A stretch of 64,000 nt of DNA. It comes from an uncultured Bacteroidota bacterium. Lineage in GTDB: Bacteria; Bacteroidota; Rhodothermia; Rhodothermales; Salinibacteraceae. A model generated the notes under the pieces. The model saw only the letters and a list, made by a program, of their open reading frames with translations. It was not told the origin of the DNA and did not search any database. Below, in pieces: positions 26,412 through 30,819 of this stretch. Position 1 is the stretch's first letter. Each line of letters opens with the position of its first letter. A program made the position numbers and the translations under genes. The stretch is taken from assembly GCA_937127285.1 (NCBI GenBank), contig CAKZLV010000055.1, positions 159 through 64,158 on the forward strand, given 5' to 3'.

Positions 26412-26611
26412 GACGATACCAGTCGAGAAGGAGAGCCAGTGCAACGACGTCCATCATCCCAAACGCCCCGCTTGAAAGCAAGCGTCCGGGTCGCGCCTGG
26501 GGCGGTGCGCAGTGAGCGTTGGACGTTTGGGCGTTGGACGTTTGGACGTTGGAATGTTCGAGGTTTGGGCGTCGGGATTGCGCGGGAGGGTGAACCGGAC
26601 GGTTGCAGCCG

Positions 26612-27382
26612 TCACGTTCCGTGGCGGCCCTCCCCTTCGGTGAAGCGGCGGGCGCCCTCGGCCGTTTCGCCGCTGTCGAGCACCTCGCGCCCGAGACGCG
26701 CCTCCAGAGAGAGTCCCTCTTCCTCCGTGGCGTCCAGTCCCCGGTAAACGGCCGCCCGGTCGCTCCGCAGGCAGGTCTGGGGGAAGGCGGCGAGGGTGCG
26801 GGCGAGGGTCTCCGCTTCTTCCCACGCGGTTCCGGGATCGACGACCCGGGTGGCAAGCCCGATGCGCTCAGCCTCGTCCGCCTCGACGGGCCGGCCGGTG
26901 AGGATCAGGTCGAGGGCGCGTCCGAGGCCGATGATCTGGGGGAGGCGCTGCGTGCCGCCGTCGACGAGCGGAACGCCGAAGCGCCGGCAGAACACGCCGA
27001 AGACGGCGTCGGATTCGACGACGCGCAGATCGGCCCAGCAGGCGAGTTCGAGTCCCCCGGCCACCGCATACCCCGAAACCGCGGCGATGACCGGTTTGGA
27101 CAGGCGAAGTCGCGTCGGGCCGAGGGGGCCGTCGGCGGACGGGTCGGGGTCGACGGCATGGACGTCCCCTTCCGCGACGGCTTTCAGGTCGGCCCCCGCG
27201 CAGAAGTGCCCGCCGGCGCCGGCGAGGACCGCAACGGCCGCGTCGTCGTCCGCCTCGAATGCCCGAAACGCATCCGCGAGCGTCTCTGCCATCGCCGGAT
27301 CGATCGCATTCCGCCGCTCGGGACGATTCAGCACGATCGTCGTCACCGCACCGCTTCGCTCGACGCGGATGGGAGGAGGCAT
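26612..27382 (-). CDS. Enoyl-CoA hydratase/isomerase (crotonase) family protein
   Basis: The ORF was trimmed to MPPPIRVE. It shows LNRPERRNA, FCAGADL, and AAVSGYAVAGGLELACWADLRV. Confidence 0.85.
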   Translation of the reverse strand: MPPPIRVERSGAVTTIVLNRPERRNAIDPAMAETLADAFRAFEADDDAAVAVLAGAGGHFCAGADLKAVAEGDVHAVDPDPSADGPLGPTRLRLSKPVIAAVSGYAVAGGLELACWADLRVVESDAVFGVFCRRFGVPLVDGGTQRLPQIIGLGRALDLILTGRPVEADEAERIGLATRVVDPGTAWEEAETLARTLAAFPQTCLRSDRAAVYRGLDATEEEGLSLEARLGREVLDSGETAEGARRFTEGEGRHGT

Positions 27383-27509
27383 GGGGGCACGGGAATCGTG
27401 AGTCGTCAATCGTGAGTCGTTCGTCGTGAGAGACGACGTTATGATGGATGGGTTAAGTGGGTCTTCTGAGGGAACGCCCACTTATTCACAATCACCATGA
27501 ACGATTGTC

Positions 27510-27893
27510 GTGGCATACGCAAAGACATTCCGTGATCTCACGGTTTACCAACATACTCGGAAAGAGGCAAAGCGGCTGTTCCTGCTCACCGCCCGGTTCC
27601 CAAAAGCAGAAATGTTTGCGCTAACCGATCAGATCCGGCGCTCGTCAAGAGGGGTTGGCGCACTGATCGCAGAGGCGTGGACACGCCGGCGGTATGAAGC
27701 AGACTTCGTCAACAAGATAAACCAGGCACTGGCGGAAGCGAACGAAACGCAGTCCTGGCTCGATTTTGCTCTCGATTGCGGGTATATCGAGGAAGACGAG
27801 TACCGCGAGATCGATGAGTCATGGCAACACATCGGCGCCATGCTCCGACGCATGATCCAGCGTTCGAACTCTTTCTGCCACTCTCCCGCCTGA
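27510..27893 (+). CDS. Four-helix-bundle protein (23S rRNA intervening-sequence protein family, TIGR02436-like)
   Basis: It has a GTG start and the family-typical blocks FRDLTVYQ...FP..E.F.LTDQIRRSS.SV.A.IAE and E..EA.ETQSWL. The gene is visibly lower in GC than its neighbours. Confidence 0.8.
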   Translation: MAYAKTFRDLTVYQHTRKEAKRLFLLTARFPKAEMFALTDQIRRSSRGVGALIAEAWTRRRYEADFVNKINQALAEANETQSWLDFALDCGYIEEDEYREIDESWQHIGAMLRRMIQRSNSFCHSPA

Positions 27894-28260
27894 CCGCTCA
27901 CCGTGCTGTGCTCTTGCAAAATACGTCAACATCAGTCTGAGGAAAATCTCAGTCGCAGGTAGAATTTTCTCCCCGTCCACTTGCTTCTTCAGAAGAGGAA
28001 CGACGCCTCCCGGCGCAGCTTTCCCCTGTCGGAGTGCCGGAGGTCGGGGCGCTGTGCCGAACACACCGTCGGCTGTCGTGGCCAATGCGATTGGCCATAG
28101 CGAAGACACAGCGGGCGTCTTCGGGAAAGCCGATGCACGCGGCAACACCTCCGACGCATGTTTCACGAGCTACCATTCACGACCCACGACTCACGATTCC
28201 CATCCATCACACACAACGCACAATACACAATACACAACCCACAACCCTCAACCCGGCTCC

Positions 28261-30819
28261 TTACCCCTTCTTCGACTTCGCCGTCGGGGTGGCGGAGAGG
28301 GGGTCGTCGGGCCAGTAGTGCTTCGGGTAGCGGCCGCGCATGTCTCTGCGGACGTCGTAGTAGGTGTCGTCCCAGAAGTTGGCCAGGTCCTGCGTGATCT
28401 GAACCGGGCGCTGGGCGGGAGAGAGCAGGTGGAGCGTGAGCGGGACGCGTCCGCCGGCGATGCGCGGGGTGTCCGTCTTCCCGAACATCTCCTGCAGGCG
28501 CACAGCGAGGACCGGACGCTCCGGGTCGGAGTAGTCGATCGGGCGGCGGTTGCCGCTGGGGACGGTGACGTGCGTGGGGGCGAGGTCGTCGAGGCGATCG
28601 CGCTGCTCCCACGACAGCATGTCCTGCAGGAGCTGCGTCGCGTGGAGCTGCTTCAGGTCGTCGGCGCGCTTCATGCCGTAGACGTGCGGGGTCAGCCACT
28701 CGTCCAGCATCTCCAGCAGCGTCTCGCGGCGGACGTCCGGCCAGTCGTCCTCGCCGAGGTGATGATGCAGGAAGACGATTCGGTTCTGAAGCTGGCGCGC
28801 CTTCTTCGTCCACTTCAACAGATCGAGGCCCTCCTGGCGGACGCCCTCGACCATCGCCTCGGCCACTTCGGTGGGATCCGGGTCGGGAAGCGGAGCATCC
28901 TGCAGGATGACGGCGCCGAGGCGCTCCCGGCGACGGGCGCGGACGAGCTGCGCGTCGGCGTCCCACCCCACGTCCGTTTCCACCTCGATCTGATCGCCGA
29001 AGTAGTCGGTCAGGTCGTCTTCCGCAATCGGGGCCGCCAGCAAAATCCGGTTCTCCCCGCGCCGGCGGTCGACGTGGGCGGCGACGAGGTAGTCGGCATC
29101 CGAGAGGAGTTGGGGCTTCGGGAGCTCCGCGCTGCGGCCGTTGAAGAGCCGAAAGCGCCCGGCGTGTCCGGCCGAGGCGCCGGTCCGGCGCTGGGCGATG
29201 CGGTCCGGATACGCAAATGCGGTAAGCAGGCCGCACGCCTCCACGTCGCCGGTTTTGTTGCGGGAGACGTTCATTTTCTGCCGCCAGTGGTCGGCCACCT
29301 TGCGGACGCGACCGACGGCGCCGTAGGGCACCATATAGTCACGGGCGTGATTCGGCGTCGGGCGGTCTCCGCGGCGCAGGCGGTGCAGCGATTCGAGGCG
29401 CAGGCGCAGGTCGACGTCCGGGGCCTCGCCCTGCCCCTTAAAGATGTCGCGCTCGCTCAGGAGCGCCGCCAGATCGCACGCCACGGCACCGTGTTCCAGC
29501 ATCTCGCCGTTCAGCAGCATGTGGGCGAGGCGCGGATGCAGGCCGATCTCGGCCATGCGGCGCCCGTGCTCGGTGATGTCGCCGGACGCGTCGAGCGCAC
29601 CGAGGCGACGCAGAAGATCCCGGGCCTGGTCGTAGGCTCCTTCGGGAGGGGGGTCGAGCCAGCGGAGTTCGGCGGGATCGTGCGTCCCCCACGAGGCCAA
29701 CTCCAGAGCGAGGGGCGCGAGATCTGCGTTGGCGATCTCCGGCGGCGTGTGCGCCTTCAGGTGCTGGTGCGTGTGGCGCGTCCACAGCCGGTGGCACACG
29801 CCCGGACTCGTCCGGCCCGCCCGTCCCTTCCGTTGATCGGCGGAGGCCTTCGAGACTTTCACCGTCGCCAGACGCGTCATCCCGCTCTGCGGATCGAAGC
29901 GCGGCGTGCGCACGAGTCCGCTGTCAACGACGACGCGAATGCCCTCGATCGTAAGGCTCGTCTCGGCGATGTCGGTTGACAGGACGACCTTGCGCGTGCC
30001 TTCAGGCGCCGGCTCGATGGCCGCGTCCTGCTCTTTCGCCGGCATGTTGCCGAAGAGCGGGTGCAGCTCGACGTCGTCCGGCAGCGCGGCCTCTTCCAGG
30101 CGGGATTCCGTGCGCTTGATCTCTCCCGCCCCGGGAAGAAACACCAGCACGCTCCCGTCTTCCTCGCGGAGGACATCCTGCACCTTTGCGGCGACGGCGT
30201 CTTCGATGCGCCGGCGTCCGCGGGTCGGATTGTCGTCGGCGTAGTGGACGTCGACCGGGTAGGAGCGGCCTTCGCTCTCGATGAGGGGAGCCGACCCGTC
30301 CTCCGGCCCCAGGACGTCGGCGATGGGCCCGGTGTCCAGCGTGGCGCTCATCACCAGGATGCGCAGGTCCGGGCGTACCACCTGCTGGGCCTGCAGGGCG
30401 AGCGCGAGCCCCAGGTCGGCCTGCAGGTTGCGCTCGTGGAACTCGTCGAAGATGACGCACCCGGTTTCGTCGAGCGCGGGGTCGTCCTGGAGCATTCGGG
30501 TGAGGACCCCTTCGGTGACGACCTCGATGCGCGTCCGGTTGCTGACGCGGGTATCCATCCGGACGCGATAGCCGACCGTCTCCCCAGCCTGCTCGCCGAT
30601 CGTCGACGCCATGCGCCGCGCAGCGGCCCGCGCGGCCAGGCGACGCGGCTCGAGCACGATGATCTTGTGCCCGTCCAGCCAGTCCTCCCTCAGAAGCGCG
30701 AGCGGAACCCGCGTCGTCTTCCCCGCCCCCGTCGGGGCCTGCAGCACCGCCTCCGAGCGGTCGCCCAGCACGTCTTTGAGGTCCGGAAGGACTTCTTCAA
30801 TCGGAAGATCTACGGACAT
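28261..30819 (-). CDS. hrpB: ATP-dependent RNA helicase HrpB
   Basis: It has DEAH-box helicase motifs (APTGAGKTT, DEFHER, SATL, TDIAETSLTI, QRKGRAGR) and an HrpB-type C-terminal domain. Confidence 0.9.
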   Translation of the reverse strand: MSVDLPIEEVLPDLKDVLGDRSEAVLQAPTGAGKTTRVPLALLREDWLDGHKIIVLEPRRLAARAAARRMASTIGEQAGETVGYRVRMDTRVSNRTRIEVVTEGVLTRMLQDDPALDETGCVIFDEFHERNLQADLGLALALQAQQVVRPDLRILVMSATLDTGPIADVLGPEDGSAPLIESEGRSYPVDVHYADDNPTRGRRRIEDAVAAKVQDVLREEDGSVLVFLPGAGEIKRTESRLEEAALPDDVELHPLFGNMPAKEQDAAIEPAPEGTRKVVLSTDIAETSLTIEGIRVVVDSGLVRTPRFDPQSGMTRLATVKVSKASADQRKGRAGRTSPGVCHRLWTRHTHQHLKAHTPPEIANADLAPLALELASWGTHDPAELRWLDPPPEGAYDQARDLLRRLGALDASGDITEHGRRMAEIGLHPRLAHMLLNGEMLEHGAVACDLAALLSERDIFKGQGEAPDVDLRLRLESLHRLRRGDRPTPNHARDYMVPYGAVGRVRKVADHWRQKMNVSRNKTGDVEACGLLTAFAYPDRIAQRRTGASAGHAGRFRLFNGRSAELPKPQLLSDADYLVAAHVDRRRGENRILLAAPIAEDDLTDYFGDQIEVETDVGWDADAQLVRARRRERLGAVILQDAPLPDPDPTEVAEAMVEGVRQEGLDLLKWTKKARQLQNRIVFLHHHLGEDDWPDVRRETLLEMLDEWLTPHVYGMKRADDLKQLHATQLLQDMLSWEQRDRLDDLAPTHVTVPSGNRRPIDYSDPERPVLAVRLQEMFGKTDTPRIAGGRVPLTLHLLSPAQRPVQITQDLANFWDDTYYDVRRDMRGRYPKHYWPDDPLSATPTAKSKKG

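Follow-up and report, generated by a model that had tools for sequence, protein, structure and literature searches.

The DNA analyzed here, hereafter the window, is a stretch of 64,000 nucleotides on contig CAKZLV010000055.1 of an uncultured member of the Salinibacteraceae (assembly GCA_937127285.1). At 27391-28201 of the window, an 811-bp segment of low guanine-plus-cytosine (GC) content is situated between a gene for a crotonase/enoyl-CoA hydratase (ECH) and hrpB. It carries a gene for a four-helix-bundle (4HB) protein of the S23p family, also known as the 23S rRNA intervening sequence (IVS) protein family, and this gene, antisense to both neighbors, is bracketed by two complementary arms built of tandem heptamers. 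The distance from the left arm to the ECH start is 9 bp, and that from the right arm to the hrpB stop codon is 60 bp; a hydantoinase-A (HyuA-like) gene is also found among the neighbors. Our data make it probable that the segment is a heptamer-armed 4HB cassette, that is, a PF05635/TIGR02436 gene between inverted 7-nt arrays with the design of an S23p-type IVS outside rRNA, to which a dispersed repeat has been added. The features of the locus are as follows.

26612-27382, minus strand: flanking ECH gene (PF00378; NF006108 388 bits, cut-off 273)
27391-27429, plus strand: left G/T-rich arm, an array of GTGAATC/GTGAGTC heptamers whose first 16 nt pair perfectly with the right arm
27442-27452, plus strand: remnant of a second, GATGG-type arm, TGATGGATGGG, pairing with 28199-28209
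27510-27893, plus strand: 4HB protein gene, S23p / 23S rRNA IVS protein family, 127 aa, GTG start (PF05635, TIGR02436)
27961-28148, plus strand: copy of a dispersed intergenic repeat of ~190 nt with the core palindrome GTGGCCAATGCGATTGGCCAC (blastn, nhmmer)
28163-28201, plus strand: right arm, C/A-rich, pairing with the left one (16/16 perfect; 39 nt at 79%)
28199-28209, plus strand: CCCATCCATCA, partner of the GATGG-type remnant at 27442-27452
28219-28254, plus strand: further C-rich heptamer arrays, CACAATA and CACAACC, between the right arm and the hrpB stop codon (Tandem Repeats Finder, TRF)
28261-30819, minus strand: flanking hrpB gene for an ATP-dependent helicase (TIGR01970, 1063 bits), whose 3' end is the conserved anchor of the cassette site

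The sequence GGGAATCGTGAGTCGT (27391-27406) is the perfect reverse complement of ACGACTCACGATTCCC (28186-28201), and its inner 13 nt, AATCGTGAGTCGT, occur a second time at 27408-27420; an earlier note on this stretch, made from the letters alone, had reported this exact repeat and its tandem copy, and both coordinates and sequence were confirmed. The inverted repeat extends imperfectly over 39 nt (27391-27429 / 28163-28201), and a 14-mer, AATCGTGAGTCGTC, is present twice in the left arm. When the arms were folded with a short linker, free energies of -48 kcal/mol (plus strand) and -57 kcal/mol (minus strand) were obtained, with a z-score of about -8. The low GC of the interior, likewise noticed earlier, held in windowed analysis (0.53-0.58 versus 0.70-0.72 in the flanks), and the GC content at third codon positions of the 4HB gene is 0.65, compared with about 0.88 for typical genes of the genome. 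In scans of 27300-28300, no sigma-70-like promoter was found, and Rfam returned no rRNA and no other RNA; a PADLOC search for membership in a defense system yielded noise only.

The assignment of the gene to a TIGR02436-like family was upheld. Its intact open reading frame (ORF) encodes a protein that matches PF05635 at 102.9 bits (cut-off 33.8) over model positions 1-105 of 106, and TIGR02436 at 97.2 bits (cut-off 24). Sequence matches in the Protein Data Bank were 2RLD (E=8.6e-13) and 2GSC, pentameric crystal entries with five chains deposited each. The ratio of nonsynonymous to synonymous substitution rates (dN/dS) of 4HB ORFs ranges from 0.08 to 0.31 overall and from 0.09 to 0.14 among close orthologues, values that place the protein under purifying selection. 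bAvd, the accessory protein of diversity-generating retroelements, belongs to a homologous four-helix-bundle fold family (PMC10053308), to which our protein shows only weak matches (PF22296; NF033474, the Avd equivalog, at 35.3 bits, below its cut-off of 80). The locus differs from such retroelements in that, within several kb of the 4HB gene, neither a reverse transcriptase nor a template/variable repeat pair was seen.

Inverted repeats of this kind cannot be read in isolation in this genome. The left-arm 16-mer has 75 matches with at most two mismatches in the 3.85-Mb assembly, mostly within tandem (GTGAATC/GTGAGTC)n arrays, whereas a reversed control gave none, and TRF reported about 550 arrays of period 7 and about 545 of period 14, belonging to many unit families. 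The cassette arms are therefore members of a genome-wide heptamer family rather than private terminal repeats, so a "terminal inverted repeat" alone could simply be two neighboring arrays of a common family. The association of such arms with 4HB genes goes beyond this. All seven PF05635 genes of the genome lie between inverted heptamer-type arms, and the unit is different at each locus (GCGTTGG, GTGAGTC, GTGTGGGCG, GTTGTTG, GGGGAAAC, GGGTACT, and GAAAATT). Under a strict criterion (score of at least 14 within 400 bp), arms were found at five of the seven 4HB genes, compared with 4 of 308 control intergenic gaps (Fisher p=1e-7) and 1 of 22 scorable copies of the ~190-nt dispersed element. Inverted array pairs spaced 400-1000 bp apart number five in the genome, four of which are 4HB loci. 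Pairing between the arms of the same cassette averaged 17.9, versus 9.9 between arms of different loci (1/5000 permutations). Because direct pairs of same-family arrays are as frequent as inverted ones genome-wide (49 versus 29), this enrichment of inverted arrays is specific to 4HB genes and not due to chance.

The seven 4HB genes share a low GC content (0.56-0.62, with one at 0.67), their proteins are 21-46% identical, and the DNA of the 4HB gene part studied here has no second copy elsewhere in the genome. With respect to their neighbors, three cassettes are co-oriented and three antisense. Our cassette shows the traits of the class, namely a PF05635 gene, inverted 7-nt arrays of one unit, the G-rich arm on the 5' side, a position between genes and arms specific to the locus; it departs from the class, in which arrays lie within about 150 nt of the gene, on one side, where the 3' arm is too far away. 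This arm lies 270 nt beyond the 4HB stop codon because the ~190-nt repeat is inserted there, and the same addition accounts for a span of 811 bp, the other cassettes measuring 520-820 bp and mostly 520-634 bp.

That repeat (27961-28148) is one of at least 23 genome copies of a dispersed element, retrieved with blastn and nhmmer, with the invariant core GTGGCCAATGCGATTGGCCACATCGACGACAGGGCGG. Its copies almost always follow closely on the 3' end of a gene, to which they are convergent, and the others (e.g., C98:111-303, C276:7165-7356, C183:661-851, and C146:5727-6140, where two stand in tandem) are not bracketed by inverted arms. No match was found in Rfam, and alifold gave no strong consensus fold beyond a hairpin of the 9-bp core palindrome. 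The element is unrelated to the usual cassette and could be a protein-binding or a repetitive extragenic palindromic (REP)-like element. It also accounts for most of the ~290 bp in which the earlier note saw no convincing ORF: the four ORFs there indeed lack a Pfam match. Another partial copy is enclosed by the only short inverted heptamer pair of the genome lacking a 4HB gene (GGGGATTGG / CCAATCC; contig C190:89-593), in which an intact ORF of normal codon bias was not seen; this pair may be a cassette that lost its gene.

The same arrangement was observed well beyond this genome. PF05635 is present in 38 of 41 Salinibacteraceae genomes, in 1-10 copies. In an arm survey of 53 loci (the seven described above and 46 from relatives), arms were detected at 36, typically 35-180 nt upstream of the Pfam match, and the G-rich arm was on the 5' side in 33 of these 36, a polarity that is independent of gene orientation because an inverted repeat is identical from both strands. 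The association also holds in array-poor genomes, such as G009 and G005, and a 4HB locus of Haloferula rosea (Verrucomicrobiota) has GGGGTCA-type arms with a score of 25. A search of genome contigs with a single protein as query led mostly to Salinibacteraceae, and a tblastn search of 72,556 plasmids matched 41 records, almost all cyanobacterial. Among the eight plasmid loci inspected (seven cyanobacterial and one from Azospirillum), clear inverted arrays of short purine-rich and pyrimidine-rich tandem units hug the ORF at five, from Nostoc edaphicum, N. punctiforme, Leptolyngbya, Geminocystis, and Azospirillum lipoferum; at the locus of Nostoc PCC 7120 there is a 3' array only, with an insertion sequence upstream. 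The A. lipoferum locus is a genuine IVS in helix 45 of 23S rRNA, with arms of GACAGAG/GACGGAG heptamers. These observations support the view that a layout like that of the rRNA IVS, with an S23p-family ORF in the loop of a complementary-arm stem, recurs around 4HB genes in the genome, in the family and in other phyla, as the earlier note had proposed for this single locus. As a separate observation, the Pseudanabaena galeata plasmid pPg_01 (L089, NZ_CP112875.1 45571-47228) carries a 4HB gene with long GCTAAAA/GCCAAAA arrays between cas6 and cas4, inside a CRISPR-cas operon.

The closest homologues of our 4HB protein (63-68% identity) are encoded at the same site, directly after the hrpB stop codon, and an hrpB-proximal cassette is common to at least three other genomes. 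In the metagenome-assembled genome SW_9_63_38 (locus L077) and in G006, hrpB is followed by the G-rich arm and then by the 4HB gene in sense; in Salinibacter sp. DAL-Ass_25_91C1R (locus L067) and in the present genome (G000), the 4HB gene is antisense to hrpB. In all four, the arm on the hrpB side is G-rich and belongs to the GATGG type; the orthologous cassettes in L067, L077, and G006 have GATGG as their arm unit, of which the 11-nt remnant pair TGATGGATGGG / CCCATCCATCA is left here. Since gene orientation is not in line with HrpB similarity (G006, 78%, sense; L067, 74%, antisense; L077, 70%, sense), at least two flips or re-insertions of the interior must have occurred. In at least 12 genomes, sister paralogues of the same 4HB subfamily are found at a second conserved site. 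The cassette is thus shown to be an old resident of the hrpB 3' flank, occurring in either orientation with a fixed arm polarity.

At the family level, a 4HB gene is absent from the 1.4 kb around hrpB in 19 other relatives. An empty site, for which the earlier note proposed to check sister strains, thus exists among the relatives compared, none of which is of the same genus; the site is filled in at least three other genomes, and presence or absence of the cassette across the family shows gain or loss on a long time scale only. In another genus (L019 of G014 and L023 of G005), hrpB and ECH are convergent genes separated by an array-free spacer of 50-100 bp; in the present genome ECH has the same direction as hrpB. 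The far flank also varies, being ECH here and, in L067 and L077, an orthologue of a gene on contig 63 of our genome, so the cassette site is also a point of rearrangement. Insertion into a pre-existing array hairpin was considered and rejected: the empty hrpB flanks of genera g6 and g10 lack arrays, and arrays arise de novo in 23S rRNA. Several further observations concern this region. The hrpB 3' flank is a rearrangement hot spot with breakpoints coinciding with arrays. In L067, the 4HB cassette is separated from hrpB by an insert of about 770 bp with a minus-strand ORF (locus positions 1913-2760), bordered by a direct duplication that comprises about 70 bp from the hrpB 3' end. On contig 63 (C63:3290-4100), a unit of about 250-300 bp is present in at least three copies in tandem, each including paired segments (e.g., CCCTTCTCCNNAGGGAGAAGGACAGGAAGAGGGGA and GTTGTCCCTCCCTCTTGTTCTCCCTCCTCTGAGGGAGAGAC); these copies follow downstream of the gene adjoining the hrpB-site cassette in L067 and L077.

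The 4HB loci form syntenic groups across genera, which allowed arms to be compared at orthologous sites. In one such group, the cassette lies between a gene whose product ends in ...LDWKERR and der/engA, and the alignment revealed that a change in one arm between genomes is accompanied by a change in the other (GGGGAAG/CTTCCCC, GTGAGTGGCGA/TCGCCACTCAC, and GGGGCGAGGGG/CCCCTCGCCCC). When own-arm pairing was compared with cross-genome pairing in two orthologous groups, the observed sum was reached in 58/5000 and 96/5000 permutations, figures that overstate the case and are indicative only because kin are not independent. The two arms of one cassette evolve in concert, as shown by these orthologous sites. 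Low GC is retained in syntenic 4HB orthologues across genera and is therefore no mark of recent import. Divergence of a cassette was also observed between L041 (G042) and L048 (G040), at about 1320-2040, where the flanks are 97-98% identical and the cassettes only 77% (synonymous divergence, dS, 1.29; dN/dS 0.12), with arms that are not alignable; this looks like allelic replacement or very fast turnover confined to the cassette.

The nearest known systems are the ORF-bearing 23S rRNA IVSs of Leptospira, of Coxiella burnetii (helix 45) and of the Brucella/Xanthomonas type, which likewise carry an S23p (PF05635) ORF in the loop of a stem formed by complementary arms. In the Coxiella IVS, the inverted-repeat stem around the S23p ORF is cut by RNase III, and the arm on the start-codon side contains tandem GACAGAT heptamers whose number varies between strains (Warrier et al. 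2016, PMC4990558). Neither the rRNA IVSs nor our cassette includes a transposase or a known mobility enzyme, and the helix-45 IVS of Azospirillum has the same arm design. The differences are equally clear. The IVSs sit in helix 25 or 45 of 23S rRNA, whereas the present cassette lies outside rRNA, between two protein genes, with its ORF antisense to the surrounding transcription and with an unrelated dispersed repeat inside. Decay and a lack of translation are reported for the Coxiella ORF (PMC4990558), in contrast to the protein encoded here, which is under purifying selection; RNase III cleavage, shown for the Coxiella IVS, is a prediction for our cassette. A second comparison concerns the heptameric repeats of Xanthomonas (GGGAATC) and Nostoc (GGGGAYT), which, as described by Rehm et al. 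(2015, PMC4692102), are also intergenic tandem 7-nt units of variable copy number, with the G-rich strand directed away from the adjacent gene; the left arm of our cassette itself starts with GGGAATC. That source gives 70-75 convergent (inverted) heptamer pairs per Xanthomonas genome, names no gene family inside them and interprets the repeats as quadruplex formers, in contrast to the one-unit pairs described here, which specifically enclose PF05635 genes. No published description of non-rRNA cassettes of the IVS type was found in the literature searched. Our findings thus support an IVS-type cassette outside rRNA as far as its layout is concerned, and do not support its recent mobility.

If the cassette works as its rRNA counterparts do, the G-rich 5' arm and the C-rich 3' arm would pair in transcripts of either strand, giving a stem of about 30 bp from which the ORF is looped out. 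By analogy with the Coxiella IVS, this stem would probably be cut by a double-strand-specific RNase, and such cleavage would insulate the host transcript from the insert. At the DNA level, the inverted repeat would let the interior flip by recombination between the arms, and gain and loss of whole cassettes would be rare. Several observations weigh against this scheme or against the generality of the class. Mismatches between arms comprise 35 G-U pairs in the sense strand, 37 in the antisense strand and 70 others; without an excess of G-U pairs on either strand, selection at the RNA level finds no specific support, and the complementarity could equally well have a cause at the level of DNA. 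Strand-specific RNA selection on the arms was accordingly rejected as a candidate for lack of bias in these counts. No RNase III was found by tblastn (with an E. coli rnc query) or by its signature motif, although a draft that is 88% complete is no valid test of absence. At our locus, the GATGG-type and GTGAGTC-type arm pairs are crossed rather than nested, and one hairpin cannot hold both. About one third of the 4HB genes of relatives have no detectable arms, the Oscillatoria plasmid locus has direct arrays on both sides, and at the Pseudanabaena plasmid locus the arrays are mainly direct, an inverted partner lying further upstream. The permutation figures for orthologous arms, which kinship inflates, belong to the same side of the balance.

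The earlier note had suggested a non-autonomous mobile cassette. In its simplest form this would be a miniature inverted-repeat transposable element (MITE), whose 16-bp terminal inverted repeats are used by a transposase encoded elsewhere and which inserted recently between ECH and hrpB. Like MITEs and REP-type elements, the cassette is small, intergenic, bounded by inverted repeats and devoid of a transposase; the perfect 16-bp repeat around a low-GC segment, the hrpB site that is empty in 19 relatives and the closely related 4HB genes at two or more different sites in the family are all in keeping with this idea. It fails on the arms themselves, since the supposed terminal repeats belong to the genome-wide tandem heptamer family and, where the arms of a MITE should be conserved among copies, seven cassettes have seven units. 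Nor was a target-site duplication, suggested as a check, present beside the arms (...GGGGGCAC and ATCCATCA..., with GGCAC and ATCCA as the adjacent bases). The search for other copies recovered the 16-mer family and six further armed 4HB loci, but no near-identical cassette among these ancient paralogues, which encode a selected protein; the shared site in at least three other genomes and the low GC kept across genera point the same way. Recent transposition is already largely refuted, and we regard the MITE reading as very unlikely. Another reading is coincidence, namely that spacers are filled with arrays and that two of the same family happen to stand beside the gene in opposite directions. 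Array density is ~44 per 100 kb, 2-4 times that of four sampled relatives, and larger inverted pairs of one family also bracket ordinary genes such as radA, metK, and nuoH. Direct pairs are as common as inverted ones, and G-rich strands tend to run away from the nearest gene (189:43 at 5' ends, 320:229 at 3' ends), as described for Xanthomonas and Nostoc (PMC4692102). Such a coincidence is nevertheless extremely improbable in view of the contrast between 5/7 4HB loci and 4/308 control gaps, the persistence of the association in array-poor genomes, in other phyla and in 23S rRNA, where no array pre-exists, and the co-variation of arms at orthologous sites.

Two further readings accept that the arms belong to the gene and assign them a different role. 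The arms could be recombination sites of an invertible segment whose flipping switches the 4HB gene or its neighbors on and off. The hrpB-site orthologues in both orientations with unchanged arms, which require at least two flips or re-insertions, favor such a segment, as does the balance of three co-oriented and three antisense cassettes in this genome. We consider it unlikely: no recombinase adjoins any cassette examined, the arms are short and imperfect, and flips were seen only between genera, which fits rare homologous recombination rather than a regulated switch. Alternatively, the arms may be arrays of binding sites for the pentameric 4HB protein, serving autoregulation or packaging, or may form G-quadruplexes or i-motifs, their complementarity being a by-product. 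An arm unit that is specific to the cassette and co-varies with the locus would suit a dedicated binding protein, the relative bAvd is established to bind nucleic acid and reverse transcriptase (PMC10053308), G-rich heptamers form quadruplexes in vitro (PMC4692102), and the lack of a strand-specific G-U signal is also compatible with this proposal. Direct repeats would serve equally well as binding sites, yet the inverted order with a G-rich 5' arm predominates (33/36), and many units, e.g., GTGAGTC and GTTGTTG, lack the G-runs that a quadruplex needs; on balance this reading appears rather unlikely. A broader proposal, which we offer as tentative and rather unlikely, is that the cassettes form one ancient class of self-maintaining insert, in which the pentameric protein would recognize its own arm unit and promote concerted renewal of the arms together with occasional insertion, inversion or replacement. 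The rRNA IVSs would in that case comprise those cassettes that inserted into rRNA helices, and solitary arrays of the short tandemly repeated repetitive (STRR) and GGGAATC types would in part be leftover arms.

The heptamer-armed 4HB cassette, the reading we prefer, bears on two old questions. To our knowledge, the origin and purpose of ORF-bearing rRNA IVSs have been open since 1993, and the function of the widespread genes annotated as "four helix bundle protein" (S23p/Avd-like) is likewise open. An arm-ORF-arm unit that occupies ordinary spacers, with co-evolving arms, a selected protein and either orientation at one conserved site, makes the rRNA IVS a single case of a general cassette instead of a curiosity. 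It also ties a named gene family to some of the heptameric repeats whose excess in bacterial genomes is unexplained. Cultured and tractable systems for tests of stem processing, arm binding, and inversion exist in Nostoc, Xanthomonas, and Salinibacter ruber, the last of which has armed cassettes at the der site and at the group-A site.

Some observations on the arrays themselves were made along the way. The idea that 4HB copy number drives array density is weak at best: arrays per 100 kb (with 4HB copies in parentheses) were 10 (0) in G003, 14.5 (7) in G005, 15.5 (5) in G009, 19.5 (3) in G010, and 44 (7) in the present genome. Units TTGGTCA/CTGGTCA and ACTGGGT of this genome resemble the cyanobacterial STRR2 and STRR1 repeats, respectively, and GGGAATC-like units are similar to the heptamers of Xanthomonas. 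Heptamer arrays of 7- and 14-nt period fill intergenic spacers, with examples near the cassette at 26519-26579 and 28219-28254, and such arrays stand at the ends of many contigs, the probable reason why the assembly is fragmented.

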